DNA from: Candidatus Undinarchaeota archaeon
Lineage (GTDB): Archaea; SpSt-1190; JASMDC01
NCBI GenBank assembly: GCA_964519305.1
Contig: CAZFHY010000019.1
Location: 7,351 to 71,350 of the forward strand
Direction: 5' to 3'
Length of the DNA: 64,000 bases
The notes below the pieces were generated by a model, which saw only the letters and a list, made by a program, of their open reading frames with translations, was not told where the DNA came from and made no database searches. Made by a program: the position numbers and the translations under genes. This document shows, one piece after another, positions 11,148 through 37,700 of the stretch (the stretch's first letter is position 1; every line of letters begins with the position of its first letter).

Positions 11148-11156
11148 GATTATCCC

Positions 11157-12356: not shown

Positions 12357-12365
12357 GGTCTCACC

Positions 12366-13565: not shown

Positions 13566-13610
13566 GGTATCACTTCCCTACCATGGTCCTGTGCCCTCCC
13601 GGGCAGGGGC

Positions 13611-15587
13611 TCACTTGGAGCCCCTGCGCCAGAAGAAGCGGTACGCGCCGTACAGGCCACCCACGAACACCAAAAGGCCCACTACCAGACCGACGACCAT
13701 GCCGGTCCCCATGGTGAACTCGAGCCCAAGGCGCTGGATGTCCTCCGGACCATAGATGGTCAGCTCGATATCCTCCTTCAGGGTGTAGCTCTTCCTGCTC
13801 GAATCCTGGTACTCCACGGTGACCGGGAGCGCAAGCTTCCCGGGCGCAGCATCAGCCTTGACCTTGAGCTCGAACTCCGCCGTCTCGAAGTCGTCGGAGT
13901 CCATCTTGCCCACGTAGATCCGGTCCGAGGACAGGACCTCCAGGACGTCGGTGGGGGCCACATTGACCGTCAGGAACTTGATGTTCTCAGTGCCCTTGTT
14001 CACGAAGTTCAGGGTCACGGTCCCCTTCTGGCCAGCCTTGTACAGCGGCGACTTCTCCAGGCCGATCTGGATGCGCGGCACCTCGCCGGTGAGCTCACCC
14101 ACGGGGTCGCCCGCCTTGTAGAGGCGCAGGGGCACGTGCTTCTCTTCCGTGTACTGGTGGTTCTGGGTGTCGCTGAACCTCAGCTGGAGCTTGAGGTCGG
14201 ATGTTGCTCCGGCGAACTCCTCGGGCACATGGATCGAGTAGGTGATTGTGTTCTTCGCATTGGCAGCCAGGCTCTCGATGAACGTCGTGGGCGAGGAGAG
14301 GATCTTCACGCCCGCTGGTACCAGGAGCTGGGCCACCAAGGACCGTGCCTCTTCGGCGCCGGTGTTGAGCACCTCGATGGACACGTCCTGGGTTGTTCCC
14401 TTCTTGAAAAGGTCGGGGGAGGATACCCGCAGGTCGAGCCCGGGCTTGGAGCCCACCACTACGGTGACGATCCCCATCCTGGTGAAGCGCTTGCCCAGGC
14501 TGTCCAGGTAGGCGATGCCCACGGGAATCTTGTAGATGCCCGGTGCGGCTGTCCCGGCAGCGGTGATGTCGAACTGCACGGTGCCCTCGGCACCGGGCGC
14601 GAGGCTGTCGAGCACGCGCTCCGCCGACGACTGGCTCGTGGCGAAGGGGATGGTGGTCGCCGACAGGTCGAGGCCCACGGTGATGCTGCGCAGGGGCACG
14701 TCCGAGGCGCTCTTCAGGGTGAGATAGACAGTGGCGTCCCCGCCCGGAGGGATGCGAACCGGGTCGGTGGTTGTCCCTGCAACGAGCAGGTCGCGTCCGA
14801 CCGCCTTCCGCACGTTCAATGCGAGCTCGAGGTTCTTTGTGGTCGTAGCGCCTTTGCTCTTGTAGGTGAGGGTTATCGGGAGGATATAGATGCCGTCCGC
14901 ACCATCACCGATCCCCAGGGAGAGGCGCACCTTCTTTGTGGACCGGGGGCCCATGTCCCCGAGCCATCGGTTCGTCCCTGCGTTAAGGAGATAGAAGAGG
15001 CTGGTGTCCGTGGAGCCTTTGGGCGTGGTGCTGATGTCCAGTTGCACGTCCTGGGCCTTCCCGAGACCGGTATTTTCAAGGGTAAGGGCCGCTGTGGCGG
15101 TCCCACCCGGAGCGAGTTGCTCGGGTGTGAGGGCGATCTCCTTGAGCGTGAAGTCCGCACCAGACTCCACGTCGATGCTCACCTTATGGATGGTCACTTC
15201 CTCGCCCTCGGTGCACGTGTCGGGGCACGCGGCGATCTCGAGCTCGTAGGTGTCCTCCGGTGCGTCCTCGGCCACGATGACCAGGAACTTGCGGTACACC
15301 TCTGTCTTGGGCGCGAGACTACCGATATGGAACGATTCGCTCTCACCCGGTTTCATTGTGAACGGGTACTTAGGCCGCACCTCGAGCACAAGGTTATCTG
15401 CCGTGTTCTGAGCGTAGTTGTCCACCTTGATGCTCACCTCCACCTGTCGTCCGGGCTCGGCGGGCACAGGTTCATAGCTCAATCCGAGAACGCGGATGTT
15501 CGGATCCGTCGGGAGGAAGTCGGCCCCGGCCGAAAGGGCTAGAATCAGGGCGCACACGATACCGGCTGCGATCTTTTTGTCAGTCAT
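13611..15587 (-). CDS. Secreted multi-domain CARDB/COG1361-like protein with a C-terminal TM anchor (ABC-associated)
   Basis: Signal peptide, then about 5 beta-sandwich CARDB-like domains, then a C-terminal TM helix (MVVGLVVGLLVFVGGLYGAYRFFWRRG). ATGA overlap with the ATPase gene. Confidence 0.7.
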   Translation of the reverse strand: MTDKKIAAGIVCALILALSAGADFLPTDPNIRVLGLSYEPVPAEPGRQVEVSIKVDNYAQNTADNLVLEVRPKYPFTMKPGESESFHIGSLAPKTEVYRKFLVIVAEDAPEDTYELEIAACPDTCTEGEEVTIHKVSIDVESGADFTLKEIALTPEQLAPGGTATAALTLENTGLGKAQDVQLDISTTPKGSTDTSLFYLLNAGTNRWLGDMGPRSTKKVRLSLGIGDGADGIYILPITLTYKSKGATTTKNLELALNVRKAVGRDLLVAGTTTDPVRIPPGGDATVYLTLKSASDVPLRSITVGLDLSATTIPFATSQSSAERVLDSLAPGAEGTVQFDITAAGTAAPGIYKIPVGIAYLDSLGKRFTRMGIVTVVVGSKPGLDLRVSSPDLFKKGTTQDVSIEVLNTGAEEARSLVAQLLVPAGVKILSSPTTFIESLAANAKNTITYSIHVPEEFAGATSDLKLQLRFSDTQNHQYTEEKHVPLRLYKAGDPVGELTGEVPRIQIGLEKSPLYKAGQKGTVTLNFVNKGTENIKFLTVNVAPTDVLEVLSSDRIYVGKMDSDDFETAEFELKVKADAAPGKLALPVTVEYQDSSRKSYTLKEDIELTIYGPEDIQRLGLEFTMGTGMVVGLVVGLLVFVGGLYGAYRFFWRRGSK

Positions 15588-17850: not shown

Positions 17851-20800
17851 GTGTTGCCACGGCAGGTGTTCATCGTGATAGGGCGAACCTCGTGGACAGT
17901 GCTATTCGCACTGACTATGCTAATGCTCCTCGTCGTGGGGAACGGAGAGGGCACAGGGTCCGGTACGGGGCAATCCCAGAACACTGCGGACAATGCAGTG
18001 GACTTCTCGCAGTTCTTCAGCGAGAGCGAACAGGAGATGCTCGAGACCAACGAGGAACTGGAGGCAGTAAGGGCCAACCTCTTGCTCGCCATTTCGGAGT
18101 GTTCTGCCAAGGAGGAGGAACGTCTCCAGGCGTGGCAGACGCTAGAGCAGAAGCGCGTGATCATGGAGCAGCGTCAGGAGGTCCTCGGTCAGCGGACGGA
18201 AGTGCGTGTCGAGAAGGAGACGGTGCGCGACGACAAGCAGACTGACTTAGATGGGAAACAGGCAGCGCTCAATGCATGTGAGGACTGCTCTTGTGGTGAG
18301 GGCGAGACCGATTGCAGCTGTGATTGTAGCAGTGAGCGGAGCGCACGTGATAATGCCCAGACGGAGCTCAACACGGCACAGACCGAGCTCGACGATGCCA
18401 TCGATCTTGAGACCACCGCCCAGGATAACTTCGACACTGCCGATACCGAGCACACGACGGCCGAGACCGAGTTCACCGCGTCTGCTGAGTGTGCCGACGG
18501 AGCCTGCCTTGTTCAGGGCGACCTCGAAGGTGTTGACCTCCGCCAGGGTGGATGCAGCGAGGGTCCTTGTGTGTCCTTCTCCACCGATGACGCAACGATC
18601 ACCAGTAGCGTCGAATCGCAAGTGGGGGAGGATCCGGAGATTATCGAGACAACGACGGATGCCGAGTTGGAGGTGGCCTTCACCGACATGGAGGTGGCCT
18701 TCACCGATATGGACGCCCCGGAAGCGATGACCACCGACTTCGACGCAGCAGCAGGCGACTTCCTGATAGACGGTGCGAACCGACTTGAAGACCTAATAAT
18801 CTACTCGGAGACCATGGCAGAGGCCTATAACGAACTGGGGATCGCCATGGGGGAGGACAACGAGGAGCTCACGGCCTATCTCGAGGGAAAGGACCCCCTG
18901 GGCCTCACTCCCGCCGAGCTCGAGGACCTGTTCACGTTCGTGATGGATACGAAGGACGAGCTCCCTGTCGACGACAACCACTTCTTCGACGCCATGCGCT
19001 ATCTCTCTAGCGAGGAGGGCGAGCTCTTCCTCGCTGACGTAGAGGAAAAATCACTGGCCGGCACGATCAGCGGTCTGAACATGGACAAGGAAACGCTCGA
19101 GAGCGTCATCGACGATCTTCAGGAGGAGAAGGAGTTCTATCAAATGCTCCTGTTCTGGGCCATGGAACCGGAGGACATCGCCTGGGTTCTGGAGGAGATC
19201 GCGCTAATAGAGGGGTTCCAGGACGCTCTCAGGAGTGAGGTCACCCGGATCGACTCGGAGATGGTGGAGCTCAACGAACAGCGCGAGAAGGCAGAGGCGG
19301 ATAGGACGGCCATCAAGGAGAGCCTCGAAGCGGCCGAGGCGAAGGCAGCAACCGCTAGGAACGCCCTCAACAAGTGTAATACGGACGGGTGTGACGAGAA
19401 CACGGTGGCCGCACTACAACTGGACCTACAGCAGGCCGAAGAGGAAAGGAACCTCTTGCAGACCCAGCTCGAGGAGACGAACACGTTGCTCGAGGAGCTG
19501 GACGCTAAAGGTGGCGCGCTCGAGGAGGAGAAAGAGAGCCTCGAGACCACCGTGAACACATTCGACGACATCATCGAGGGCGAGGATGTGGACCCCGATG
19601 CGCTCACCACTCTGGTGGACATCACAAAGAACAAGGCGACGGAGACTGTCGATACGATCGATGAACAGATCGATCTGAAGAAGGACGAGCAGGGTCAGAT
19701 CACCATCACGATCGACCAGAGCCAGAACGATCTGGAGGACAAGCAGGCCCAGACCGAGAAGGAGCGGCAGGAGCTCGCGCAGCGGCAGCTCGAAGAGGCT
19801 CAGAAGAGGGAGCAGGAGCTTAAGCAGACAAAGACCGAGCTCTCAACGGGCCTCACAGCAGCAGAGGAAAAGCTTGCTTATATCGAGGAACAGCTCAAGG
19901 CAGCGACCGAGGAGGGGGACAAGAAGACTCTGGAGGACCTCAAGCAACAGGTCATCAAGGAACGCGAGGAGCTGGAAAGCCAGCTCGGGGAGATAGCCGA
20001 CCAGATCGATCAGGCGCGGGGCCGTCGTCATGAGCTCGAGGACAAGTACGGGGTAGGCAATCCCGAACAGCGGGCCGCTGAGAGCCATATCGACGAGGTG
20101 AAGGTCCAAGAAAATCAGCTCGAAAAGAATCACGAGCGGCTCACCACCGACATCAAGGAGAAGGAGCAGGTGCTCGCGACCATCGAGGAGCAGCTCAAGG
20201 GGGCCTCCACTGACGAGGAACGGAAGCAGCTCGAGGAGCAGAAGGCGATCGTGCTCAATGAGCGCGACCAGCTGTCCACCCAGCTCGAGGACGTAAAACA
20301 GGAACTCGAACAGGCCGCAACGCAGCGTCAGGAGCTCGAGAAGAAGTACGAGGAGCAGTACGGAGCAGCTCCGCCGGAGGCCGAGCCCAAGACCGCTGAT
20401 AAAACGGAGGAGAAGCCCGGGACGGTGGAGGAGGCGACCGGTGCTTTCGAGTCGGTCATCGAGAACATCGAGCAGGCCGGCGTGGGGATCGAGGGCGAGG
20501 AAGCCGTGACCGAGGCCCCTCCCAACGCCAATCCGAACGTCGAGTTCCTCAACGCTGTTACGGAGACTCTGGAACGGGTGGGCCAGTCAGCGGCCAATGA
20601 AGAACGTGACGAGGATGAACCGGAGGGACCTCCGGAATCCAAGCCGCCGAAGAAGGAGAAAAAGAAGTCGGAACCCGTGATAATCCCTCCGCCAGTAGCC
20701 TCCTACGTGGACCCATTCCCCGCGCAGTACAGCCCTATCGGGACCATGTCCGTCATCGAGGAGCCGCTCGTTGCCGTAGCGGCCGCACAGCCCCCGTCAC

Positions 20801-21534
20801 CGCCCTCTACCTCGGCGCCCGTGACCCCTGCAGGCCCGGTCCAACCGTCGCAGCCCGGAGAGGTCGTGACGGCACCGCGCCAGCTCGATCCAGTGGATGC
20901 GGCCGACCTCGCGGCCGTGTTCGTGGACGGGGAACAGCTCGAAACGCCGGACGGCGCCACTATTCTCGTGGACTCGACGACCAACGAGGTGTACAAGGTG
21001 ACCCAGGAGGGAGTGGAGACCACGGGGACCGACCAGCTCCACATCCAGGAACGGGTGGACCCGCTCACCGGCGATACCGAGTACTATGCTGTCGTGGGCA
21101 ACGTCACCGATGAGAACTCCACCCTTGATGATATCGCAGAAGGGAACGCGACCGACATAGCCGAGGAGGCCATCATCGAGATCCGCTACCTGGACGATGC
21201 CAAGAACGTCCTGTTCATAGGTCCGCGATGCCAGATGACCAACCTCACGGACGTAGATGTGCGTGTGGTGACCCTCAACGATACTGTCATCAATGCAACC
21301 AAGAACGAGACCAATGCAACCGTGATGCTGCTGGACATCTCGTGCGTCCCCGCAGTGACCATGGACGAGGACGATCCTGAGGCGAATGTCGTCACCTTCC
21401 TTGAGGAGATGGAGTGCTTCGGTGCCGAAGTGGGGCGATGCCTGGACATCGAACTGTACATGGTGGTCATAGGTAAGGACGAGAACCTCTGGGAGGTCCA
21501 GTGCATCGAGAAGCTCTATTCAGGGATCGAATGA
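17851..21534 (+). CDS. Giant secreted/anchored coiled-coil protein (1227 aa) with a C-terminal N-glycosylation-sequon-rich globular domain
   Basis: GTG start. N-terminal hydrophobic signal/anchor. About 800 aa of acidic heptad-rich alpha-helical sequence with internal ~77-aa repeats (IEEQLK...ELE.KY..). A CxC cluster (CEDCSCGEGETDCSCDCSS). A Pro-rich linker. The C-terminal domain carries 8 N-x-S/T sequons within 80 aa. Confidence 0.7.
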   Translation: MLPRQVFIVIGRTSWTVLFALTMLMLLVVGNGEGTGSGTGQSQNTADNAVDFSQFFSESEQEMLETNEELEAVRANLLLAISECSAKEEERLQAWQTLEQKRVIMEQRQEVLGQRTEVRVEKETVRDDKQTDLDGKQAALNACEDCSCGEGETDCSCDCSSERSARDNAQTELNTAQTELDDAIDLETTAQDNFDTADTEHTTAETEFTASAECADGACLVQGDLEGVDLRQGGCSEGPCVSFSTDDATITSSVESQVGEDPEIIETTTDAELEVAFTDMEVAFTDMDAPEAMTTDFDAAAGDFLIDGANRLEDLIIYSETMAEAYNELGIAMGEDNEELTAYLEGKDPLGLTPAELEDLFTFVMDTKDELPVDDNHFFDAMRYLSSEEGELFLADVEEKSLAGTISGLNMDKETLESVIDDLQEEKEFYQMLLFWAMEPEDIAWVLEEIALIEGFQDALRSEVTRIDSEMVELNEQREKAEADRTAIKESLEAAEAKAATARNALNKCNTDGCDENTVAALQLDLQQAEEERNLLQTQLEETNTLLEELDAKGGALEEEKESLETTVNTFDDIIEGEDVDPDALTTLVDITKNKATETVDTIDEQIDLKKDEQGQITITIDQSQNDLEDKQAQTEKERQELAQRQLEEAQKREQELKQTKTELSTGLTAAEEKLAYIEEQLKAATEEGDKKTLEDLKQQVIKEREELESQLGEIADQIDQARGRRHELEDKYGVGNPEQRAAESHIDEVKVQENQLEKNHERLTTDIKEKEQVLATIEEQLKGASTDEERKQLEEQKAIVLNERDQLSTQLEDVKQELEQAATQRQELEKKYEEQYGAAPPEAEPKTADKTEEKPGTVEEATGAFESVIENIEQAGVGIEGEEAVTEAPPNANPNVEFLNAVTETLERVGQSAANEERDEDEPEGPPESKPPKKEKKKSEPVIIPPPVASYVDPFPAQYSPIGTMSVIEEPLVAVAAAQPPSPPSTSAPVTPAGPVQPSQPGEVVTAPRQLDPVDAADLAAVFVDGEQLETPDGATILVDSTTNEVYKVTQEGVETTGTDQLHIQERVDPLTGDTEYYAVVGNVTDENSTLDDIAEGNATDIAEEAIIEIRYLDDAKNVLFIGPRCQMTNLTDVDVRVVTLNDTVINATKNETNATVMLLDISCVPAVTMDEDDPEANVVTFLEEMECFGAEVGRCLDIELYMVVIGKDENLWEVQCIEKLYSGIE

Positions 21535-23967: not shown

Positions 23968-24543
23968 TCACCAGTTCTCGGCAAGGAGCTGGAAGTGTGC
24001 TTGCGGATGGGCGCAGGCAGGGCACTCCTCGGGAGCCTCAGGCCCCTCGTGGACGAACCCGCAGTTGTTGCACTTCCACTTCACCGGCCGGTCCTTCTTG
24101 AACACTGTGCCGTTCTCGATGTTCGCAAGGAGGCCTAGATAGCGCTTCTCATGCTGCTTCTCGGCGATAGCGATGGACCTCATGACCGTGGCGATCTCGG
24201 GGAATCCCTCCTCATCTGCGATGTCGGCGAACTCCGGGTACATGGATGTGTACTCATGGTTCTCACCGGCAGCGGATGCCTTGAGGTTCTCGGCGGTCGA
24301 GCCGATGATGCCTGCAGGGAACGCACCGGTGATCTCGACCTCGCCCCCCTTGAGGAACTTGAAGAGCTTCTTCGCATGCTCCCTCTCGTTATCGGCCGTC
24401 TCCAGGAATACGTTCTGGATCTGGACAAAGCCCTCCTTCTTGGCCTTGGAGGCAAAGAAACCGTAGCGGTTCCGTGCCTGGGACTCGCCAGCGAATGCTG
24501 TGAGTATGTTCTTTTCGGTCCTTGTTCCTTTCAGTTCAGGCAT
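23968..24543 (-). CDS. rbr: Rubrerythrin
   Basis: Diiron four-helix bundle ExxH motifs (EREH, EKQHE) plus a C-terminal rubredoxin-like CNNC...CPAC domain. Confidence 0.9.
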   Translation of the reverse strand: MPELKGTRTEKNILTAFAGESQARNRYGFFASKAKKEGFVQIQNVFLETADNEREHAKKLFKFLKGGEVEITGAFPAGIIGSTAENLKASAAGENHEYTSMYPEFADIADEEGFPEIATVMRSIAIAEKQHEKRYLGLLANIENGTVFKKDRPVKWKCNNCGFVHEGPEAPEECPACAHPQAHFQLLAENW

Positions 24544-24582: not shown

Positions 24583-24969
24583 TCAGATCGTCGTCATCCA
24601 CAGGCCGTGGACGGTGCAGTGCTCACGCACCGCGATGATCTTCTCGCCGGTGCAGTCGCAGAACAGGGCCTCAGGTGCCTGTCCTGGCTTCAGGAACACG
24701 ATATGTGTAGCTATATCAGTGACGAGCTCGATCCACTCGATGAAGTGGTTCTCCTCCATGGGATGGGTCACCGAGCCCACGATCACCTTCAGACCGCCGT
24801 CGGTCGTCTCGATGACGGGGAGGTGCTTCTCCATGCCTTGGTCCTCTTTCTTCTCCTCGAGTAGAATCATCTTGCGGGCGCAGCACACGAGCTCTCCCCC
24901 GCTGGCGTGTACGACCTCGATGATGTTACCGCACACGTCGCATTTGTAGACTTCCAGCCTCTTGGTCAT
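24583..24969 (-). CDS. dfx: Desulfoferrodoxin (2Fe superoxide reductase)
   Basis: N-terminal desulforedoxin centre CDVC...CC. SOR domain with four His and Cys-x2-His ligands (EKHLPV, THPME, NHFIEW, EHCTVHG). Confidence 0.85.
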   Translation of the reverse strand: MTKRLEVYKCDVCGNIIEVVHASGGELVCCARKMILLEEKKEDQGMEKHLPVIETTDGGLKVIVGSVTHPMEENHFIEWIELVTDIATHIVFLKPGQAPEALFCDCTGEKIIAVREHCTVHGLWMTTI

Positions 24970-25005: not shown

Positions 25006-25470
25006 TTAAGCGGTGTCCGCCGGAGGGTGGGGTGTATCACAGTGATCGCAGTCATGATCGCAGTTCGCGTGCACGGGGAGCACAGTCCCTTCTCCATTGC
25101 GTGTCCTGTAGTCCTTGATGGCCGCGTGAAGGGCATCAGCAGCGAGGTTCGAGCAGTGCATCTTCTTTGGCGGGAGCCCGTCCAGCTCGTCCGCCACGTC
25201 CTGACGCGTGATCTTCATGGCCTCTTCGATGTTCATGCCCTTGGCCAGCTCGGTGACCATGCTGCTCGTGGCGATGGCAGAACCGCACCCGAAGGTCCGG
25301 AACTTGATCTCTGTGATGATGTCGTTATTCACGGTGATGAATATCTCCATGAGGTCGCCGCAGACCGGATTACCGACCTTACCGTACCCATCGGCGTCCT
25401 CGATGACACCGACGTTGCGGGGATTCATGAAGTGCTCCATTACCTTCTTGCTGTAGCCGACTTGTGTCAT
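25006..25470 (-). CDS. iscU: IscU/NifU-type Fe-S scaffold with a Cys/His-rich C-terminal tail
   Basis: Conserved scaffold Cys residues (PVCGD, FGCGSAIA, HCSNLAADA). An extra ~25-aa tail HANCDHDCDHCDTPHPP. Confidence 0.85.
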   Translation of the reverse strand: MTQVGYSKKVMEHFMNPRNVGVIEDADGYGKVGNPVCGDLMEIFITVNNDIITEIKFRTFGCGSAIATSSMVTELAKGMNIEEAMKITRQDVADELDGLPPKKMHCSNLAADALHAAIKDYRTRNGEGTVLPVHANCDHDCDHCDTPHPPADTA

Positions 25471-25482
25471 GTGACCACGTCC

Positions 25483-26634
25483 TCATAACGGGGATAGGTT
25501 TCTTAATCTTTCGACAGTGTTCCGGGCGGAGTCGACCACCGCGGGCACCTGCTCCATGGTGTTGGACCGCCCGAGGGTGAGCACCATGGAACCATGCGCT
25601 TGCTCATGCTTGAGCCCGATGGCAAGGAGTACATGGGACGCCTCCAGAGTGCGCGAGGTACAGGCCGAACCGGTGGCCATAGCGATGCCGTACATGTCCA
25701 TGCACAGCAGGATGCTCTCGCCCTCGATCCGACCGAACCGGAAACTAGCATGATGGGGCAATCGTCTCTCGGGATGGCCGGTAAGATGGGAGTCCTCGAT
25801 GGCGAGGATGCCCTTGATGAGCGCATCCCGGACGCCCCGAAGCCGTTCGCTCTCCCCGGTCATCTCGTTCTGGATTAGGCGAGCCGCTTCGCCCATGCCC
25901 GCAATGGCGAACACGTTCTCTGTACCAGAGCGGAGACCCTCTTCCTGTCCGCCCCCGGGGAGCACCGTCTGCAGCTTCACACCAGGTGCTACATAGAGGG
26001 CACCTGCCCCCGGTGGGCCACCTAATGTGTTCCCAGAGAGCGTGAGCAGGTCGATGCCGTCCCTCTGGACGTCAATGGGGATGCGCCCCGCCGTTGCGGT
26101 GGCGTCCACATGAAGGTACCTGCCCTTCTCATGGACTATCGTGGACACCTCCTTGATGGGCTGGATAGTACCGATCTCGTTGTTGGCGTACATGACCGAT
26201 GTCACTATTGTAGCGTCGGTCAATAGACCTTCCAGCGCTCCTAGGTCGATGAGCCCGGTACCGTCCACCGGGGCGAGGGCCAGCTCGAATCCCTGCTTGG
26301 CCAGGTCCTTCATAGGATTGAGCACGGAGATGTGCTCGATAGCGCTGGCCACAACGGCCTTTCCCTTGTTCATGTTCCGGAGAGCGGTCCCCCTTATGGC
26401 GAGGTTGTTCGCCTCGGTGGCACCGCTCGTGAAGATGATCTTGCCCTTCTCATCTGCATTGATCAGGGTGGCGATCCGTTCCCGTGCGTCCTCCACCGCC
26501 TGCTTGGTACCGAGACCGTCCGAGTGCAGGGAGGATGGGTTCCCGACGTCCTCTACGAGGTATCTCTGGGCGAAGGCGAGGACCCGCGGGTCCACTGGTG
26601 TCGCCGAGCCGTTGTCCAAGTAGATACGGTCCAT
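25483..26634 (-). CDS. IscS/NifS-family protein LACKING the PLP-binding lysine (SGNT in place of SGHK)
   Basis: Aligns end-to-end with class I cysteine desulfurases. The active-site Cys loop is conserved (GSACTS) and so are the PLP-pocket His/Asp (EHISV, HVDAT), but the Schiff-base motif reads LSGNTLGG; the codons were verified on the reverse strand at 26026-26037. Start set at MDRIYLDN. Confidence 0.8.
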   Translation of the reverse strand: MDRIYLDNGSATPVDPRVLAFAQRYLVEDVGNPSSLHSDGLGTKQAVEDARERIATLINADEKGKIIFTSGATEANNLAIRGTALRNMNKGKAVVASAIEHISVLNPMKDLAKQGFELALAPVDGTGLIDLGALEGLLTDATIVTSVMYANNEIGTIQPIKEVSTIVHEKGRYLHVDATATAGRIPIDVQRDGIDLLTLSGNTLGGPPGAGALYVAPGVKLQTVLPGGGQEEGLRSGTENVFAIAGMGEAARLIQNEMTGESERLRGVRDALIKGILAIEDSHLTGHPERRLPHHASFRFGRIEGESILLCMDMYGIAMATGSACTSRTLEASHVLLAIGLKHEQAHGSMVLTLGRSNTMEQVPAVVDSARNTVERLRNLSPL

Positions 26635-26648
26635 CTCAATCCCCCCGT

Positions 26649-27011
26649 CTAGAACCACATGGTCGCGCCAGCGTCCAAGGCAAGGTCGTTGAGGGTGGCG
26701 GCCCCGACGATCTTTACACCGTCACGCAACTCCGCCTTCTCCCAGCCGAGCATCCGCTTTGACGCTTCACAGACATAGACTGTGATCCCCATCTCGATGG
26801 TCTTTGCGAGCATCTCGCCCACGCTGGGAAAGTCACCGATCTTGATCTTCTCGGCCTCACCGGGGACAAGCACCCGTAAAGACGTCCCGAGGTAGTACAC
26901 GATAGGTTCAAGGTCCATTGCCTTTGCTGTCTGTGCCAGGACCAGAGGTGAATACTGTCTCTCGGGAGCATCGCTCGTCTGGACATAGAGGATCGATTTC
27001 TCGTTCTTCAT
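26649..27011 (-). CDS. DsrE/DsrF-like sulfur-relay family protein
   Basis: ~120 aa. DsrE-like fold motifs (ILYVQTS...VYVCEAS). ATG start with a GGAG SD; the ORF track's TTG-extended start was rejected. Confidence 0.6.
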   Translation of the reverse strand: MKNEKSILYVQTSDAPERQYSPLVLAQTAKAMDLEPIVYYLGTSLRVLVPGEAEKIKIGDFPSVGEMLAKTIEMGITVYVCEASKRMLGWEKAELRDGVKIVGAATLNDLALDAGATMWF

Positions 27012-27078: not shown

Positions 27079-27093
27079 TTGTACTAATTACAA
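27079..27093. promoter_or_regulatory. 7-1-7 imperfect palindrome TTGTACT-A-ATTACAA (candidate Fur/PerR box) in the divergent promoter
   Basis: Sits between the TATA-like CTATAAATA (27065-27073, plus direction) and TATATAATA (27047-27055, minus direction). Overlaps the expected plus-strand transcription start of the perR-led operon. Confidence 0.4.
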
Positions 27094-27136: not shown

Positions 27137-27571
27137 ATGACCGATGATGCGATAGAACGTGGTGTGAGACTTCTCAGGGACCATGGATTGAAGGTGACAC
27201 CACAGAGGCTCGAGATACTTCGCTACCTTGAGGAACATTGCATTCATCCTACTGCGGACGAGATCTACAATGCCCTGAAGGAACGCAATCCTTCTCTCTC
27301 GAAGACGACCGTTTACAATACACTTGAGACTATGCACAAGCAGAAGCTCGTCGATGTGCTGATGATATCGGAGTCCGAACGCCGATACGACCTCGCACAT
27401 GGCTCACACCATCATTTCATGTGCCATGTGTGCGGTAGGATCCTCGACATCGATATCGCATGCCCACACTGCAACCGGATCATCAACGGTGAGCACCAGG
27501 TCGACGAGGTCCACGGTTACTTCAAAGGTGTCTGCAGCGAGTGCTTGACCAAGGAAGAAAAAAGACAATAA
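27137..27571 (+). CDS. Fur-family regulator, PerR-like
   Basis: DNA-binding wHTH. HHHF regulatory His cluster. Structural Zn site CHVCG...CPHCN. GGAGG SD. Confidence 0.8.
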   Translation: MTDDAIERGVRLLRDHGLKVTPQRLEILRYLEEHCIHPTADEIYNALKERNPSLSKTTVYNTLETMHKQKLVDVLMISESERRYDLAHGSHHHFMCHVCGRILDIDIACPHCNRIINGEHQVDEVHGYFKGVCSECLTKEEKRQ

Positions 27572-27585
27572 AGGGGAAATGAACC

Positions 27586-28764
27586 ATGGAGACCACCGAG
27601 ATCAAACCAGGAGTATACTGGGTCGGCGCCATCGACTGGGACATCAGGAACTTCCACGGATACCTGACCCAGCGGGGGACCACCTACAACGCTTACCTAA
27701 TCATTGACGAGAAGGTCGTGCTGGTCGACACGGTCAAGGCCCACCTGGCCGATGAGATGCTCGCGCGTATCCGTGCGATCATCGATCCGACCAAAATCGA
27801 CTACATAGTATCCAATCACGTAGAGATGGACCACTCCGGCTCCATCTCGGCCGTACTGGAGCACGCTCCGGGCGCGAAGGTCATCACCTCGGTCATGGGT
27901 GCCAAAGGCCTCAAGCGACACTATAAGACCGACTGGGACCTCAAGGTCGTCAAGAGCGGCGACACCCTTTCTATCGGGAAGCGGACCCTCGCCTTCGTCC
28001 ACGTCCCCATGGTCCACTGGCCGGACTCCATGGTCACCTACATCCCCGAGGACCGTCTCCTGCTCCCCAACGACGGGTTCGGTCAGCATATCGCCTCGAG
28101 TGAAAGGTTCGATGACGAGCTCGACTGGGGTATCCTGCAGGAAGAGGCGGCCAAGTACTACGCGAACATCGTCCTTCTCTTCGGCGCCAACGTCCAGAAG
28201 GCCATGGAGGCCCTTGGCGGGCTCGATATCGACATGATAGCACCGAGCCATGGTATAATCTGGCGCTCACACATTCCCGACATCCTCGCAGAGTACCAGA
28301 AATGGTCGACCCATGTCACTGAAGAATGCGCGGTCGTCGTGTACGACTCAATGTGGGGCTCGACCCAGAGGATGGCGCACGCTCTCGGGGACGGGCTTCG
28401 CGAGACAGGAGTACATGTCCACCTCCACAATCTCAAACACACCCACATATCCGATGTGATGACCAATGTCCTCACCGCAAAGTTGGTCTGCATCGGCTCA
28501 CCCACGCTCAACAATGGCATACTCCCTACAGTGGGGGCGTTCCTCACCTATGTGAAGGGTCTTCGTCCTGAGAAACGGTTAGGGTTCGCCTTCGGCTCCT
28601 ATGGCTGGGGCGGTCAGGCCGTCAAGGAGATCGAGTCCATCATGGACGGGCTCAAATGGGAGCGGCCCGAGAACGGGATCCGTATCGCGTACATCCCTGA
28701 CGAGGATGAGCTGGACGCGGTGCGGGAGACCGGCCGAGCCCTCGGAAAACAGCTAAGAAAATGA
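27586..28764 (+). CDS. Flavodiiron protein (FprA-type O2/NO reductase)
   Basis: Metallo-beta-lactamase-like diiron domain (HVEMDHSG) plus a C-terminal flavodoxin domain. Confidence 0.9.
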   Translation: METTEIKPGVYWVGAIDWDIRNFHGYLTQRGTTYNAYLIIDEKVVLVDTVKAHLADEMLARIRAIIDPTKIDYIVSNHVEMDHSGSISAVLEHAPGAKVITSVMGAKGLKRHYKTDWDLKVVKSGDTLSIGKRTLAFVHVPMVHWPDSMVTYIPEDRLLLPNDGFGQHIASSERFDDELDWGILQEEAAKYYANIVLLFGANVQKAMEALGGLDIDMIAPSHGIIWRSHIPDILAEYQKWSTHVTEECAVVVYDSMWGSTQRMAHALGDGLRETGVHVHLHNLKHTHISDVMTNVLTAKLVCIGSPTLNNGILPTVGAFLTYVKGLRPEKRLGFAFGSYGWGGQAVKEIESIMDGLKWERPENGIRIAYIPDEDELDAVRETGRALGKQLRK

Positions 28765-28792
28765 TGTAAGATAATGTTTAGGAGGAATCGAT

Positions 28793-29029
28793 ATGACTGA
28801 CATAACCGTGTACTCAACGCCGACCTGCCCCTATTGCAAGATGGTCAAGGAGTTCCTGAACGAGAAAGGGGTAGAGTTCAAGGAGATCGATGTATCGACC
28901 GATCGCGATGCTGTCAAGACGATGGTCGAGAAGTCAGGCCAGATGGGAGTACCCCAGATCGAGATCAACGACAAGATCATCGTGGGATTCAACAAAGAAG
29001 CACTAGAGAGGGAACTTGAGAGTGAATGA
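28793..29029 (+). CDS. Glutaredoxin-like protein
   Basis: 78 aa. CPYC active site and a thioredoxin fold. Confidence 0.8.
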   Translation: MTDITVYSTPTCPYCKMVKEFLNEKGVEFKEIDVSTDRDAVKTMVEKSGQMGVPQIEINDKIIVGFNKEALERELESE

Positions 29030-29942
29030 CGTAATCATCGTGGGCGCTGGTCCCGCCGGGATAACCGCGGCCGTGTACGCCGCTCGGAAGAGGATGAGAA
29101 CGCTGGTCCTCACCAAGAACATCGGTGGACAAGCAGCCCTCTCAGGAGAGGTCGAGAACTACACCGGCTTCCAGTTGATCACCGGGATGGAGCTGGCCCA
29201 GAAGTTCGAGGAGCAGCTCAAGGGCTTCGATGTCGAGGTCCGGACCGACGTGGAAGCGTCATGCATCACGAAGAAGGGCGACCATCTCCTGGTCAATACG
29301 CCCTCCGGCGAGCTTGCGGCCCGTACCGTGATCCTCGCCACGGGGCGCCGTCCCCGGGAGCTCAATGTACCAGGCGAGCAGGAGTTCCGCAACCGGGGCG
29401 TGACCTGGTGCGCCACATGCGATGCGCCCCTGTTCAGTGGCATGGACGTCGCGGTCATCGGTGGAGGGAACTCCGCCATGGATGCTGCGCTCCAGCTGGA
29501 CGCGATCGCGAACAAGGTATACCTGGTCAACAAGAACGACGACCTTGCGGGTGACGAGATCATGAAGGAGAAGCTATTAGCCTCCGAGAAGGTCGAGCTC
29601 ATCAATCTGGCTGAGACGAAGGAGATCATCGGTGATACCTTCGTGACCAATCTCAGGATCCTCGTGGACGGCGAGGAGCGCCTGTTGGCGGTCGGGGGCG
29701 TGTTCATCGAGATCGGCTCCGTGCCCGTCAACGCTCCGGCCTGCGAAGCCGAGAAGAACGAGTGGGGTGAGGTCATCGTCAACGAGCGGTGCGAGACCAA
29801 CGTCCCCGGACTGTTCGCCGCAGGTGATGTCACGAACATACCGGAGAAACAGATAATCGCGGCCGCCGGTCAGGGATGTATCGCTCTACTGTCCGCGTTC
29901 AAGTACCTATCGACGCATCAATTCGAAAACGGAAAGAAATGA
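29022..29942 (+). CDS. trxB: Thioredoxin-disulfide reductase
   Basis: FAD motif GAGPAG. Redox CATCDAP. NADPH motif GGGNSAMD. Start ambiguous (TTG at 29016 or GTG at 29022); overlaps the glutaredoxin stop. Confidence 0.85.
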   Translation: MNDVIIVGAGPAGITAAVYAARKRMRTLVLTKNIGGQAALSGEVENYTGFQLITGMELAQKFEEQLKGFDVEVRTDVEASCITKKGDHLLVNTPSGELAARTVILATGRRPRELNVPGEQEFRNRGVTWCATCDAPLFSGMDVAVIGGGNSAMDAALQLDAIANKVYLVNKNDDLAGDEIMKEKLLASEKVELINLAETKEIIGDTFVTNLRILVDGEERLLAVGGVFIEIGSVPVNAPACEAEKNEWGEVIVNERCETNVPGLFAAGDVTNIPEKQIIAAAGQGCIALLSAFKYLSTHQFENGKK

Positions 29943-29966
29943 GATATGAATGACGGAGTGCTCAAA

Positions 29967-30476
29967 ATGTTATCAGAAAGGATGCAAGAGGCCTTGAATA
30001 AGCAGGTGAACGCAGAGCTATACTCCTCGTACCTGTACCTGTCCATGTCGGCCTACTTCTCAGCCAAGAACCTACCGGGATTCGCCAGCTGGATGAAATG
30101 TCAGGCACAGGAAGAGGTCGTGCATGCCATGAAGATACACAAGCATGTGCTCGGGCGGGGCGGGAGAGCGATCCTTTTACCAATCGAAGGACCACCCACT
30201 GAGTGGGAATCACCTCGTGCCGTGTTCGAAGCGACCTATTCACACGAGCAGAAGGTCACGGGGCTCATCAACGGTCTCGTCGACCGGGCAAAAGAGGAAA
30301 ATGATCCCACAACGGTGGACTTTCTCCAGTGGTTCGTCGAGGAACAGGAAGAGGAAGAGGAATCCGCCAGTGGGGTGCTCGAGAAGGTTAAGCTCGCAGG
30401 GGACGATGCAGGCCTGCTCATGCTCGACCAGGAGTTGGCCAAGCGGGGTTTCACGCTCCCAGCGACCAAGGACTAG
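29967..30476 (+). CDS. Ferritin (non-heme, Ftn-type)
   Basis: Ferroxidase-centre Glu/His pattern (ELYSSYLY, QEEVVHAMK, EQK). Start at MLSERM with a GGAG SD; the upstream in-frame ATG is less likely. Confidence 0.85.
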   Translation: MLSERMQEALNKQVNAELYSSYLYLSMSAYFSAKNLPGFASWMKCQAQEEVVHAMKIHKHVLGRGGRAILLPIEGPPTEWESPRAVFEATYSHEQKVTGLINGLVDRAKEENDPTTVDFLQWFVEEQEEEEESASGVLEKVKLAGDDAGLLMLDQELAKRGFTLPATKD

Positions 30477-30493
30477 AAATGAGGTGAGTTACC

Positions 30494-30928
30494 ATGAATG
30501 ACGAAATTGCCATTTGGGAAATGATGACCAAGGACCATGCCATGATCGAGGGGCTCCTCAACGGCTTGAGAGTGTCCTTCGGGAAGGGTCCTGAGGAGAT
30601 CAAGGAAGCGTTCGAGAGGTTCCAGTGGAAGCTAGAGCTGCACTTCTTCACAGAGGAGCGTGCAATATTCACGATCCTCAGGAAAAAGGGTGACAAGACC
30701 TCGGAAATGCTCGACGACATACTCCAGGAGCACGAGGTCATCCTCGGGATGCTCGGGGATCTGGGTGCGGACATCGCCGCGGACAATCCCGTGGACATCT
30801 CGCAGTTCGTGGCCAAGCTGGTCAAGCACCGGACGTTCGAGGACGATGTGCTCTACCCCGCGCTGGATAAGGAGCTTTCGAGCACGCAGAAGGAGTTCAT
30901 AGCCCGTCGCATCAGAACCCTCCCGTGA
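30494..30928 (+). CDS. Hemerythrin HHE cation-binding domain protein
   Basis: 144 aa. A His/Glu/Asp ladder typical of hemerythrin-like four-helix bundles (HAMIEG, HFFTEE, HEVILG, HRTFEDD). Confidence 0.7.
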   Translation: MNDEIAIWEMMTKDHAMIEGLLNGLRVSFGKGPEEIKEAFERFQWKLELHFFTEERAIFTILRKKGDKTSEMLDDILQEHEVILGMLGDLGADIAADNPVDISQFVAKLVKHRTFEDDVLYPALDKELSSTQKEFIARRIRTLP

Positions 30929-30934
30929 ACGGAG

Positions 30935-31249
30935 ATGAGCAACTTGGACGACCCTGATGAAGAGCATCCGAAGGAAGAAGAGGGGCCGGCTAACAGTCCC
31001 CAGGTAGTGCTATCTGACGATGCACCTACCTGTGCTACTCCCAGTTGTCCCCTCTGTCGTCGGGACACCTTGTTCTTCATAATCCTTGGTTTCGCTCTCG
31101 TGATGACCGGCCAGAAGGACCTTATGCTAGCGGGGTATGTGATCATACTGGCAGCATATGCTCTGGCGTTCCTGGGCATCAATCTTCCCGATCCATTCCG
31201 GGCACAGACGCAGGTCGCTACTTCGGATGGACCGGAGGCGGATGAATGA
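30935..31249 (+). CDS. Small membrane protein with an N-terminal acidic region and a CxxxxC-x2-C motif
   Basis: 104 aa. CATPSCPLC followed by two TM helices. Embedded in the redox operon. Confidence 0.45.
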   Translation: MSNLDDPDEEHPKEEEGPANSPQVVLSDDAPTCATPSCPLCRRDTLFFIILGFALVMTGQKDLMLAGYVIILAAYALAFLGINLPDPFRAQTQVATSDGPEADE

Positions 31250-31329
31250 CCAAGGACGTGTTCACGTTCCTCGTCGGTGGAAAGATGAGCGAGTACAAGT
31301 AAAGACATTTAGAACTCACAGGAGATGAA

Positions 31330-31494
31330 ATGACCATGCAGAAGTTCCAGTGTACAGTGTGCGGTTATGTATACGATCCCGAGCAGGGCGATCCGGAGAA
31401 CGACGTAGAGCCGGGAACGGTCTTTGAGGACCTCCCCAACGACTGGGTGTGCCCCGTTTGTGGTGTGGAGAAGGACCAGTTCGAGCCGTTATAG
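31330..31494 (+). CDS. Rubredoxin
   Basis: 54 aa, [20 protein letters not shown]...[14 protein letters not shown]. Two CxxCG knuckles. GGAG SD. Not in the ORF track because it is shorter than 60 aa. Confidence 0.85.
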
Positions 31495-31517: not shown

Positions 31518-31763
31518 ATGACGGACGACGAAATAACTCCTGCCAAGGAGCTGGACTGCGTGGGGCTCTATTGTCCTATGCCCATCGCCCAGACAAAGGA
31601 GGCCATAGAGACCGTCGGAGTTGGCGAAGTGCTGATGGTGGAGGCCGACGATCCAGCTGCAGAGGAGGACATCACACGCTGGGCGAAACGTACCGGTCAC
31701 GAACTGTTGAAGTTCGAGCGTGCTGGCTCGATAATGACCTTCTACATCAAGCGTACGAAGTGA
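31518..31763 (+). CDS. TusA-like sulfurtransferase
   Basis: 81 aa. CPxP active-site motif (LDCVGLYCPMPI). AGGAG SD. The ORF-track N-terminal extension was rejected. Confidence 0.75.
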   Translation: MTDDEITPAKELDCVGLYCPMPIAQTKEAIETVGVGEVLMVEADDPAAEEDITRWAKRTGHELLKFERAGSIMTFYIKRTK

Positions 31764-34748: not shown

Positions 34749-37700
34749 CTAGACCGGACCTGAGCCGCACGTGTACTCGTTGGGGAAACAACTGTGGGGC
34801 GCAGAGTCGCCCTCACACCACTTGCAGTCAGCCAGCTCCATGCAGGTTGCATCAGTGATGGCATTATAGCAATCGGGGTGGTCGTCGCCCCCCGTGTCAT
34901 CCATAAGGCACTCACCGGTGTCGTCCTTGCAGTAGTTACCGTCAGGACATCCGCAATCCATACAGCAGCCGAACTGGTCCTCCCAGGGATCGCAGCTGTT
35001 ATTCTTATTGCAGCTGCAGTCGTCGTGGCAGTTATCTTTGTTCTCGCCCGTGTCGTAGTCGCAGATACCGTCGCCGCAGTGGTCGTCGGTGTGATCTCCA
35101 CCCGAGCTCATGTCACACCAGGGCGGATCCGTCATGCCGGGGCCGGGACTGATGCAGTTGGCGGGTGCGTTGGGGTCCACCCACTCGTCCGGCAGGTCCT
35201 GGTACATGTCAGGGCACGGCTGGTCGAGGTCGACGCGGCATGCGTCCATACCCTCTGAGGACTGGCAGCACTTGTAGCCGCTCGGGCCGCCTTGGTCGTC
35301 ACCGCTGTCGGACCGACACATATCGTAGTCGCAGAACTGTTCGGACGGACAACCACAGTCCTGTTGGCAGGAACCGCAGTTCTCGCCTTCATGGCCGCGG
35401 CAGTCGCCGTCACCGCAGTGACCCTGTTGGCTCCCGCTATCCTCGGGCTTGCAGATGTTCGATCCTTGGTCGCACCAGTGGTCCGCAGGGCAGCCGCAGT
35501 CCTTGCAGCAGTCGGAGGAGCCCTCCTGTCCGTTGCACATACCATCGCCGCAGTAAGGATCGTACCCGCCGCTGCTGCCGCCACAGTCGTACTCGCAGAA
35601 GCCCTCGCACTCTGAGTAGCTCCGACCCATCTCGTTGATGCACTTATTCTTGCACTGCTCGCACTGGTCGCCCGAGGGCTGCTCAGTGCCGCCGCTACCA
35701 TCGCTGTTGGACTGCCAGTAGCGCTCGGACATCTCGTTGAACCTCTGTTCGAGGTCCCGCTGGAGCCTGTCCCAATCGCGACCGTCGGACTCGAGCGCCT
35801 TCATGCGCATCTCCTCGTAGTACAGCTCGAGCTGCTTGAGGAGGGCCTGATCGTGGTACCGCACGTCCTCGCGCATTTGGGTGAGGTCCCTGGACTTCCA
35901 CAGGAGCCACTGCATTCGCCAGAACTGGAAGCGGTAGCCCTCCCAATCGCGCTCGAAGCGTTCCATAACGCGACCGGGATCGTAAGCACCGTCGAGCTCG
36001 CCGCGGAACTCTTCGGCGCGAGCCTTCATATCGAGCAGGATGCGGTTCAGCTCCTGGGTACCGGGCACGTTCTCGTACTCCATCCGGTCGACCTCGTCCT
36101 CGAATCCTTGGAGCTCGTTCTTGAGGCCGCTGAGGCGCTCGAGCATCCATAGGCTCTCCTGGAACTGGTCGAACTCGCGCTGGAACGGCTCGAAGTGGCG
36201 CCAGATATCCCTGACACCGTCCATATCGCTCGCAAGTGCGTCCAGCTTGTGCTGAAGCTCGCGGAACTTCGTCTTGGCACTGCTCACGTCCACGCCATCG
36301 TACTCCATACGCTCGAGCTGGTCCTGGATGTCCTGGAAGCGGCGCTTGTAGTCATTGGTCATTCGCTGTGCCTCAAGCCCCTGGAACACGGAGTTCTCGA
36401 ATTCACTGACGCGGCGGTTGAACAGTTCCTGCTCACGCCAGATGCGGTCCATCTGCTCCGTGGCCCTCAACTTGTTCTTGAACTCGTCAAGCTCGTACCA
36501 GAGGCTCTTGAGCCCACGACGGGCCTCGGATGTATCGATTTCGTCGTACTCCATGTCCTCAAGGCGCTGTTCCATGTCCCTGAACCTGCGCTCGAACTCG
36601 CGGGGGATGGTTGCGATGGCACGGCGCTGTTCGAGGGCGTTGATCTTGCGCTCGAACTGGTGGATGATCGTGTCCCATCTACCGCCTTCCATCTCCTGCA
36701 CCTCGCGAACGACGTTCCGCAGCTCGGCCCGAAGGTCGGCGAGCTCCTCATATAGGTCGTCCACGCGGATACCGTTGTACTCATCGTCACGGAGCTGGTC
36801 CTCCATATTGCGCAGGCGGTCCTCGAGGCCGCCAAGCCATCGGCGGGACTCGAACTCGCGCTCGAGTCTGTCGATTTCACGGTGGAACCGCTCGAGGGCG
36901 CGACCGAGCCGGTGGCCCTGGATGCCTGCGTTGCGCATTTCGTCAATACCCTCGCGGATATCCTCGATAGCATAGCGGTACGGCTTGGTGTCGACACCGT
37001 CATACTCGGCCTCCTCAAGGCGCTGTTCGACATTGTTGAGCCGGTTCTCGAGATCTATGAAGGCGCCGCTCATATCGATCTGTTCTCTGATGTACCAGAG
37101 CTTCTCGAACATCCGCTCAGCACGGCGGAAATCGCCCTGCTTGGCAAGACCCTCGATGGTGCGGAGCACCTCCTCGTAATCCCTGCGGAGGTCCTCGACG
37201 AAGTCGGGGACCTTGAAGCCGCTGTAGCTGGCGTCCTCGAAGCGCCTGTCGAGATCTTCCAGGAACCGGTAGGCGTCCTCGATCTGCTCGTTGAAATGGC
37301 GCCATTGCATGAACGACTCGAACTCGCGGTGGAGCCGTTCCATCCTGTGGCGGCACTTACCCATGATGCGGTCGAACTCGTGCGGATTGCGCACATTGCG
37401 CATCTCGTCCATGGCATTGTCGAAGCACAGAGCGACGTCCTTGAGCTTGGTCTCCATATCAGAGACGTCGAAGCCCTCGTAGGCCATCATGTCAAGTTCT
37501 TCGAACATGCGGTACAAGTTATCCTCGATCATGGTACGCTCGTAGAAGAAGTGCACAAGGGGCATCTTCTCCATAGCGTTGCGGAAGACCTTCTCGGCCG
37601 CTCTGGCCTTACCGTTCATAGCGAGCTCGATGGCCTTGTCGATACCACCTTCGATCTCGTCCAGAAGAGCGTTTAAGCGCCCTCCCTCCTCGCCGGGGAG

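Follow-up and report, generated by a model that had tools for sequence, protein, structure and literature searches.

A lysine-less IscS-type protein and its genomic association with IscU, DsrE and TusA in an archaeon of Candidatus Undinarchaeota

The assembly of iron-sulfur (Fe-S) clusters is thought to start with a cysteine desulfurase dependent on pyridoxal 5'-phosphate (PLP). The closest described relative of the protein studied here is IscS2 of Archaeoglobus fulgidus, whose IscS2-IscU pair is AF0564/AF0565, with PDB entries 4EB5, 4EB7 and 4HVK representing the natural SSND motif and 4R5F the D199K mutant. This protein (AfIscS) is reported to have no desulfurase activity, not even as D199K, and to hold a non-covalent pyridoxamine phosphate (PMP) rather than a lysine-linked PLP, while the [2Fe-2S] cluster on IscU takes its fourth ligand from the loop cysteine of AfIscS (PMC8918507, PMC7585200). 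The sulfur source of the A. fulgidus-type system was listed as an open question in a 2022 review (PMC8918507). In this work, we analyzed a 64,000-nt stretch of DNA (hereafter, the window) from a Candidatus Undinarchaeota archaeon (contig CAZFHY010000019.1 of assembly GCA_964519305.1, positions 7,351 to 71,350), in which a gene at 25483..26634 on the minus strand encodes an IscS-type protein without the Schiff-base lysine, next to an IscU gene and in the same island as genes for DsrE-like and TusA-family sulfur carriers. Lysine-less IscS proteins of the A. fulgidus type are already known, and the unusual residue of this member is a Thr in place of the Asp of its clade; what is new here is the comparative link of lysine-less IscS with a TusA-DsrE cassette.

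Other described systems share parts of this arrangement. Methanosarcina acetivorans IscS1 was also reported without the lysine (PMC7585200); the IscS1-IscU1 pair (MA0808/MA0807) represents a different lysine-less lineage, in which the His is kept, Thr occupies the Lys site and IscU1 is much longer than the window IscU. The MIS system (MisS-MisU) of anaerobic archaea and other anaerobes, described as sulfide-capable (Garcia et al., 2022, reviewed in PMC13066941), resembles the window locus in that its core is a pair of IscS/IscU-like genes unaccompanied by HscAB, ferredoxin (Fdx), IscA or IscX, and none of these families was found in the annotated window or in related loci; however, MIS was described with a cysteine desulfurase (PMC13066941), whereas the window combines an apparently dead desulfurase with two conserved sulfur carriers in the gene cluster. 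The Escherichia coli IscS-TusA-TusBCD pathway involves the same three families and Cys-to-Cys persulfide transfer, with IscS binding TusA (PMC13066941; PDB 3LVJ). There, an active IscS is the sulfur source and tRNA thiolation the target, whereas the window IscS would not be the source, the genes of its clade form one cassette with IscU, and the flow proposed here is reversed. A further comparison is with DsrE3A-TusA of Metallosphaera cuprina and with the DsrE3B,C-TusA systems of sulfur oxidizers: a DsrE3A (SSO1125) is also the closest solved relative of the window DsrE-like protein, with the single active Cys aligned, but the M. cuprina and sulfur oxidizer systems feed dissimilatory sulfur oxidation (sHdr), whereas the window is without shdr genes.

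The window IscS gene encodes 383 amino acids (aa) from an ATG preceded, 5-12 nt upstream, by a Shine-Dalgarno-like GGGGGGA run; initiation at the alternative GTG (26658) would bring the gene into overlap with the stop codon of DsrE. The Pfam scan assigned residues 4-365 to Aminotran_5 (PF00266; E = 5e-72), and the alignment with solved IscS and NFS1 chains runs end to end, in agreement with the earlier note on this DNA, which had described a full-length class I desulfurase homolog. No solved structure matches it better than that of A. fulgidus IscS2 (4EB5/4EB7/4HVK; E = 4e-126, 53% identity), to which it is orthologous; this is the Archaeoglobus IscS with an Asp at the Lys position to which the earlier note had appealed. 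Direct reading of the minus strand gave ctc tct ggg aac aca (26040..26026), that is, L-S-G-N-T, and alignment with E. coli IscS (Ec; reference sequence identical to PDB 1P3W) placed N202 and T203 (codons aac aca at 26026..26031, the latter at 26026..26028) on His205 and on the Schiff-base lysine Lys206, where canonical enzymes read S-G-H-K; the replacement of the lysine in an SGNT motif, claimed previously, was confirmed in this way. The motifs EHISV, HVDAT and GSACTS quoted for the PLP pocket and the Cys loop are all present (H101, D177 and C325), and the pocket residues T73, H101, D177, S200 and T238 are kept (Ec T76, H104, D180, S203 and T243), as is R356 (Ec R354). The earlier description of the pocket, accurate for these motifs, had nevertheless overlooked a further loss, namely that of Ec Gln183, which corresponds to Ala180 (DATAT versus DATQS). 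Cys325 (codon at 25660..25662, minus strand), aligned with Ec C328 and Af C321, would be the persulfide or cluster-ligand Cys of the GSACTS loop.

The protein (hereafter IscS*) would be unable to make persulfide from cysteine, as it has lost the Schiff-base Lys along with the His beside it and the cofactor-contacting Gln. It also scores under the cut-off of every NCBIfam desulfurase model (TIGR03402, 424.1 versus 530.75; NF010611, 366.6 versus 548; TIGR02006, 366.2 versus 643.2). The ratio of nonsynonymous to synonymous substitution rates (dN/dS) against a 93%-identical relative, L003, is 0.08, and the gene is under strong purifying selection and functional. Sequence comparison thus supports a non-catalytic, lysine-less protein of the type represented by A. 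fulgidus IscS2, and current nomenclature for the IscS*/IscU pair would be MisS/MisU. The absence of an internal aldimine need not imply the absence of a cofactor, as AfIscS binds PMP. A phmmer search against the six-frame translation of the whole 64 kb recovered only the IscS gene itself, and SufS, SufB and SufC were absent from Pfam scans of 40 window open reading frames (ORFs), 30 of them larger ORFs outside the island; the lack of a second intact desulfurase, which the earlier note had wished to see established for the genome, holds for the 64-kb window.

The likeness to A. fulgidus extends to several features. Both proteins lack the Schiff-base Lys, have Asn for the preceding His and Ala for Ec Gln183, and keep the Cys loop; in both genomes IscU is adjacent and a DsrE-family gene lies directly upstream of IscS, and the core of the window IscU is 69% identical to A. 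fulgidus IscU. Conversely, the Asp shared by A. fulgidus and about 94% of the clade is a Thr in the window IscS (SSND to SGNT), and in the same loop Gly has replaced a Ser and a Tyr; its IscU carries a Cys/His-rich tail, unlike that of A. fulgidus; and its operon is part of an oxidative-stress island of PerR type, whereas in A. fulgidus an Fe_dep_repr_C-family gene is found upstream instead. In A. fulgidus (AE000782), the DsrE gene immediately 5' of IscS2 encodes an N-terminally short protein (94 aa), and a ThiS-ThiF-TusA-DsrE-TusA-pyridine nucleotide-disulfide oxidoreductase cluster (L083:45-3241) is found about 6 kb upstream of IscS2. Since IscS* is homologous to the experimentally characterized and inactive AfIscS2, the suggestion that it acts as a scaffold partner of the adjacent IscU, and not as a desulfurase, gains support.

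The loss of the lysine extends throughout the clade, with no Lys in any of the 202 nearest natural homologs examined. Of the 120 homologs nearest to the window protein (69-100% identical), none carries it, almost all having SSND and the two closest SGNA; among the 120 nearest homologs of AfIscS2, 114 matched SSND by pattern, and the sole Lys belonged to the engineered D199K entry (P0272). A locus scan of 185,579 species genomes yielded 80 loci with 66-93% identity to the window IscS, and the lysine-less locus set comprised 82 loci (L001-L082), with Lys in none of them, SSND by pattern in 76/82 and the G[ST]AC[ST]S Cys loop by pattern in 75/82. Archaea are represented by Thermoplasmatota, Methanosarcinales, ANME, Syntrophoarchaeum, Methanothrix, Methanocellales and Bathyarchaeia, and bacteria by Zixibacteria, WOR-3, Ignavibacteria, Aminicenantes, Desulfobacterales and Cloacimonadota. 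Database names for this clade are uniformly "cysteine desulfurase (family protein)" or "NifS", and the label "cysteine desulfurase" is probably wrong for all of it. Several archaeal-type loci in metagenome-assembled genomes (MAGs) labelled as bacterial (Ignavibacteria, Zixibacteria, WOR-3) share 68-71% identity with archaeal copies, which implies either inter-domain transfer or binning errors.

At a wider scale, clustering at 50% identity reduced the SSND-type clade to one representative, after which the score falls from 567 to 409 bits. The 150 nearest representatives at this level include 127 with Lys and 23 without it, the latter with D, T, S, Q, A, P, G, M, R or L at the site; the loop Cys is present in 149/150, and Ala occupies the Gln183 site in 16 of the 23. 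In every lysine-less protein seen, Gln183 was lost. Thr at the Lys site occurs in four of the 23, which ruled out the idea that this residue is unique to the window protein. In a neighbour-joining tree (no support values), all SSND-type proteins form one clade with the window lineage nested within it, and the other lysine-less types (SAHT, AGNQ, SAQG, TAHM, SSHT) fall outside.

Within the clade, the origin of the Thr can be followed at the codon level. Three independently assembled relatives, 87-93% identical to the window protein, have GCG or GCA (Ala) at the Lys site, and a path from GAC (Asp) through the Ala codons of L001 and L003 (GCG/GCA) to the window's ACA (Thr) is consistent with single-base steps. 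Orthologs, therefore, share the loss of Lys, as the earlier note had thought worth verifying, but not the Thr, with Ala in the three closest and Asp in most; because these independently assembled relatives and the 202 homologs likewise lack Lys, the Thr codon is not a sequencing error. Among the alignment columns with 90% or higher conservation across the other 80 loci, eight differ in the window lineage, and four of these deviations (A181T, S201G, D203T/A and Y205G) lie in residues 181-205, the former cofactor loop (binomial, ~1e-3). This clustering argues that the remnant cofactor site was specifically remodelled while the rest of the protein was constrained, and the window lineage, devoid of the conserved Asp and with a remodelled loop, may represent a fully cofactor-free version.

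The 82 lysine-less loci were searched with the window proteins and then with profiles built from the cassette alignments, which revealed DsrE in 75/82, TusA in 72/82 and IscU in 78/82 within 2 kb of the lysine-less IscS. Nearly all of these cassettes are arranged as TusA-DsrE-IscS-IscU on one strand, in about 90% of the 82 loci and in both archaea and bacteria, and a Hadesarchaea contig harbors the full cassette. As a control, 80 metagenomic loci were fetched with an alignment of lysine-containing IscS proteins. Neither DsrE nor TusA was found within 2 kb at any of the Lys-containing control loci (0/76), whereas carriers adjoin 3/4 Lys-less loci of the same sample (Fisher's exact p = 4.9e-5), arranged as IscS-IscU-DsrE-TusA (AGNQ), TusA-DsrE-IscS-IscU (SAHT) and IscS-TusA-TusA (AAHQ). 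With all lysine-less loci pooled, carriers are present at 78/86 versus 0/76 Lys-containing loci (Fisher's exact p = 1.8e-37). Single look-ups agreed, with TusA-DsrE-IscS-IscU at lysine-less P0126, IscS-TusA at lysine-less P0127, and neither carrier at lysine-containing P0123, P0130 and P0131. The SAHT locus of the control sample (L166), with the order TusA-DsrE-IscS-IscU, has the STGSACFS loop reported for M. acetivorans IscS1. The loss of Lys is, in summary, accompanied by gain or retention of TusA/DsrE carrier genes in several lineages and in different gene orders, and the recurrence of this adjacency in different gene orders argues for functional coupling. The cassette, its link with Lys loss and the PerR-like box described below were absent from the searchable literature, a search that left out subscription papers, so a prior description is possible; DsrE has 0 mentions in a 2026 review of Fe-S systems (PMC13066941).

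In the window, Pfam confirmed that IscU, DsrE-like and TusA genes lie in the same island, as previously noted from the sequence. IscU (25006..25470, minus strand; 154 aa; Pfam NifU_N, 6.7e-50) starts 12 nt past the IscS stop, passes NCBIfam TIGR03419 (209.5 > 187.9) and has a dN/dS of 0.16 against L003. It is a NifU-type scaffold whose cluster ligands (Cys37, Asp39, Cys62, His105 and Cys106) are conserved in 99-100% of related loci. Its Cys/His-rich C-terminal extension (25009..25092, minus strand), which includes HANCDHDCDHCDTPHPP, does contain the NCDHDCDHCD segment reported by the earlier note, at residues 136-145. The tail is common to the window and L003 and is missing from most relatives; similar tails arose separately in L062/L065/L073 and in L082. 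The idea that such a tail generally marks the IscU partner of lysine-less IscS was ruled out, given that the tail is shorter than 10 residues in 47/78 proteins and recurs sporadically. The loci L062, L065 and L073 (Thermoplasmata/Thermoplasmatota MAG contigs) read TusA-IscS-IscU without a DsrE gene, and their IscU tail, HTCEHNHNHCDTC, resembles that of the window; the Cys/His tail may compensate for the missing DsrE, though the window has both. In L001 (ENA NODE_2599, an 87%-identical relative), a phage-integrase-family gene follows IscS at the place expected for IscU (L001:11152-12375), and the contig ends about 0.9 kb past it, where a helix-turn-helix-like ORF is found; IscU appears to have been displaced or lost there via insertion of a mobile element.

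On the other side of IscS, the DsrE3-like sulfur carrier (26649..27011, minus strand; 120 aa from ATG; Pfam DsrE, PF02635, 3.4e-12) has its stop codon 14 nt 5' of the IscS start. Its single Cys (Cys92, in YVCEAS) is conserved in 100% of 75 loci, and its dN/dS against L003 is 0.10. The best PDB match, 3MC3 (SSO1125, a DsrE3A), is weak (E = 2e-9) with the active Cys aligned, and the score against the NCBIfam DsrE2 model is 27.6 for a cut-off of 210, so that any placement in a named subgroup (DsrE2, 3A, 3B, 3C, 4 or 5) is tentative. The TusA-family gene (31518..31763, plus strand; Pfam TusA, PF01206, 1e-23, 83.4 bits for a cut-off of 28.6) scores under the NCBIfam cut-off for the E. coli-type TusA equivalog (50.8 versus 78); it encodes a CxxxxCPMP motif, both Cys of which are conserved in 100% of 72 loci. 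In most relatives, TusA is located directly 5' of DsrE, whereas in the window lineage it lies about 4.5 kb away.

The cassette of the window lineage (window, L001 and L003) is split around a shared promoter region. Leftward, DsrE-IscS-IscU continues into desulfoferrodoxin (Dfx; 24583..24969) and rubrerythrin (Rbr; 23968..24543), both on the minus strand 3' of IscU and identified by Pfam; Dfx follows IscU in many related loci. The rightward arm reads Fur-FprA-Grx-TrxR-ferritin-hemerythrin-…-rubredoxin-TusA, where the flavodiiron FprA, glutaredoxin-like, thioredoxin reductase-like, ferritin, hemerythrin and rubredoxin genes span 27586..31494 (plus strand), FprA and hemerythrin being assigned by Pfam in the window and the others by Pfam of the syntenic L001 genes. 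Many loci have this set of O2-defence genes on the borders of the cassette, which is usually found within an oxidative-stress operon led by a PerR-like regulator with a conserved palindromic box. The interval from hemerythrin to rubredoxin holds, in the window, a 104-aa ORF (30935-31249, plus strand) with a hydrophobic core and a CPLC motif, and L001 has pyruvate:ferredoxin oxidoreductase subunit genes in this interval instead.

The first gene of the rightward arm encodes a Fur-family, PerR-like regulator (27137..27571, plus strand; Pfam FUR, 8e-27), whose best NCBIfam model is PerR at 103.9 bits, under the cut-off of 180. The 92-nt DsrE-Fur intergenic region contains a 7-1-7 palindrome, TTGTACTAATTACAA (27079..27093), that adjoins a TATA-like TTTATAG in this divergent promoter. 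It occurs once in the window (0.04 expected), within 35 nt that show no change between the window, L001 and L003 despite a synonymous divergence (dS) of 0.5-0.75. In 765 kb of other related loci, TTGTAATnATTACAA had 34 matches with up to two mismatches, of which 26 were at or just 5' of a Fur-family gene, in 22 loci; five of these 22 carry another copy of the box 17 bp downstream. The Fur gene of the 22 loci stands at the head of same-strand arrays such as Fur-Rd-FprA-Rbr-TusA-DsrE-IscS-IscU-Dfx. The box TTGTAATnATTACAA resembles the Bacillus subtilis PerR box, TTATAATnATTATAA. Given the best model and the resemblance of the box, control of the cassette by a peroxide- or metal-sensing repressor is plausible; the palindrome is a probable PerR/Fur-type operator, and the cassette is probably co-regulated with the O2/peroxide-defence genes under a PerR-like repressor. 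A scan of the island for bacterial sigma-70 promoters and terminators gave counts at or below shuffle expectation and was uninformative.

With the integration of these comparisons, we consider it reasonably probable that the window encodes a non-catalytic IscS-IscU assembly platform fed by a persulfide relay, for which complex formation, direction of sulfur flow and regulation are deduced from homology and gene context. IscS* and the adjacent IscU would form an (IscS-IscU)2 complex, as in 4EB5. Sulfane sulfur would first be taken up by the invariant Cys of the DsrE-like protein, passed as persulfide to the CPxP Cys of TusA, and from there to Cys325 of IscS* and then to IscU; the Cys325 loop would be mobile, and Cys325 could supply the fourth ligand to the [2Fe-2S] cluster forming on IscU. 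Free sulfide could be an alternative or additional sulfur source. The module would be induced together with defences against O2 and reactive oxygen species, and would allow strict anaerobes to rebuild Fe-S clusters under oxidative stress or in its aftermath. In other systems, transfer from DsrE3 to TusA is unidirectional in vitro, and the role of the CPxP Cys is established (PMC11094781). The earlier suggestion that DsrE-like and TusA-like proteins deliver the sulfur is strengthened by an adjacency of carriers and Lys loss that is independent of lineage, the delivery route itself being still conjectural.

Several points weigh against this relay. The cluster-bearing IscS-IscU complex of A. fulgidus was prepared with neither TusA nor DsrE present, and free sulfide was the source that its authors suggested (PMC8918507); and sulfur in E. 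coli flows from IscS to TusA and TusD, opposite to our proposal. The TusA of the window lineage is not adjacent to the operon, and no TusA or DsrE adjoins the lysine-less Bathyarchaeia locus L093 (IscS-IscU alone), P0141 or L154. The taxa of the control loci differ from those of the lysine-less clade, so that phylogenetic confounding is not fully excluded, and independent Lys losses are argued from a neighbour-joining tree without support values. The Fur-family regulator falls below the PerR cut-off, and the operator role is predicted. Some of these points would equally suit a scaffold supplied with sulfide only, in which IscS* is a structural partner and Cys ligand for IscU, the sulfur comes from environmental or cellular sulfide, and TusA/DsrE are co-encoded for sequestration or detoxification of sulfane sulfur (formed from sulfide and oxidants) or for other thiolation pathways. 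Along with the proposal of the A. fulgidus authors (PMC8918507) and the lysine-less pairs without carrier neighbours, this explanation has in its favor that both the MIS and the SMS system have been described as sulfide-capable (PMC13066941), that DsrE4 proteins were proposed to detoxify reactive sulfur species (PMC11094781), and that an oxidative-stress gene context also fits detoxification. However, it leaves unexplained why TusA/DsrE adjacency tracks the loss of Lys (0/76 versus 78/86), and it accounts neither for the recurrence in different gene orders, nor for the conservation of the IscS Cys loop if its Cys is a mere ligand, nor for the 12-14 nt junctions of the DsrE-IscS-IscU operon; we regard it as unlikely, though the most serious competitor of the persulfide relay.

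The remaining explanations are considerably less probable. Residual or altered pyridoxal chemistry, that is, desulfuration or another reaction with non-covalent PLP or PMP and without an internal aldimine, would agree with the retention of most pocket residues (T73, H101, D177, S200 and T238) and with the bound pyridoxamine phosphate of AfIscS (PMC8918507), but AfIscS is inactive and is not rescued by D199K (PMC7585200, PMC8918507), Gln183 disappeared along with Lys in all lysine-less proteins seen, the window lineage has four further loop substitutions, including the loss of the Asp, and its IscS is under all NCBIfam desulfurase cut-offs, which makes such chemistry improbable. Slightly more improbable still is a relay serving mainly the thiolation of tRNA or cofactors rather than Fe-S clusters, with IscS* as a docking hub for TusA and DsrE: E. 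coli IscS indeed binds TusA and feeds the DsrEFH-like TusBCD (PMC13066941; PDB 3LVJ), and the IscS2 gene of A. fulgidus has the ThiS-ThiF-TusA-DsrE-TusA cluster 6 kb upstream, but 78/82 loci pair the lysine-less IscS with an IscU that has all its cluster ligands, no thiolation enzyme (MnmA/NcsA, ThiI or MoaD/MoeB) is in the conserved cassette, and IscS* cannot supply the sulfur without desulfurase chemistry. That the whole case reflects an artefact, with the Thr codon as a sequencing error or the gene as an inactivated desulfurase near loss, can hardly be credited, as the missing catalytic residues alone speak for it. A sequencing error was ruled out by the clade-wide loss of Lys, shared by independent assemblies, and by the traceable codon path, and a pseudogene or decaying desulfurase by the dN/dS of 0.08, the intact frame and the operon structure, in a clade 66-93% identical across two domains of life.

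Elsewhere in the window, the only other pyridoxal-type enzyme detected was a PALP-family protein (57187-58155, plus strand; cysteine synthase/threonine dehydratase fold), encoded beside an AMP-binding acyl-CoA synthetase-like gene. An ORF at 4741-6138 (minus strand) combines a ferric-reductase transmembrane domain with FAD_binding_8 and NAD_binding_1, a NOX/FRE-type architecture that is unusual for an archaeon. The window also has several very large ORFs of 611-1954 aa (among them 68-4734, 9984-15542, 17851-21534 and 34749-40613), and the four that were scanned had no Pfam match; the 1227-aa one, outside those four, is extremely acidic, rich in Glu, Gln and Leu, and looks coiled-coil-like. About half of the 30 additional window ORFs scanned have no Pfam family, and this abundance of Pfam-less ORFs suggests a poorly sampled lineage.

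The broader proposal, that lysine-less IscS is the hub of a TusA/DsrE3-like/IscS*/IscU Fe-S module, widespread among anaerobic archaea and bacteria, in which a persulfide relay replaces PLP-dependent desulfuration under a PerR-type switch shared with the defences against O2 and reactive oxygen species, is put forward tentatively, its chance of holding as a whole being a little short of even. If true, this four-protein relay module answers the question of the sulfur source of the A. fulgidus-type IscS-IscU system. The comparison makes that question directly testable, as the proteins and cysteines to test are now named. It also suggests that strict anaerobes possess a stress-inducible module for Fe-S assembly or repair, under PerR-like control and with a role like that of SUF in E. 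coli.

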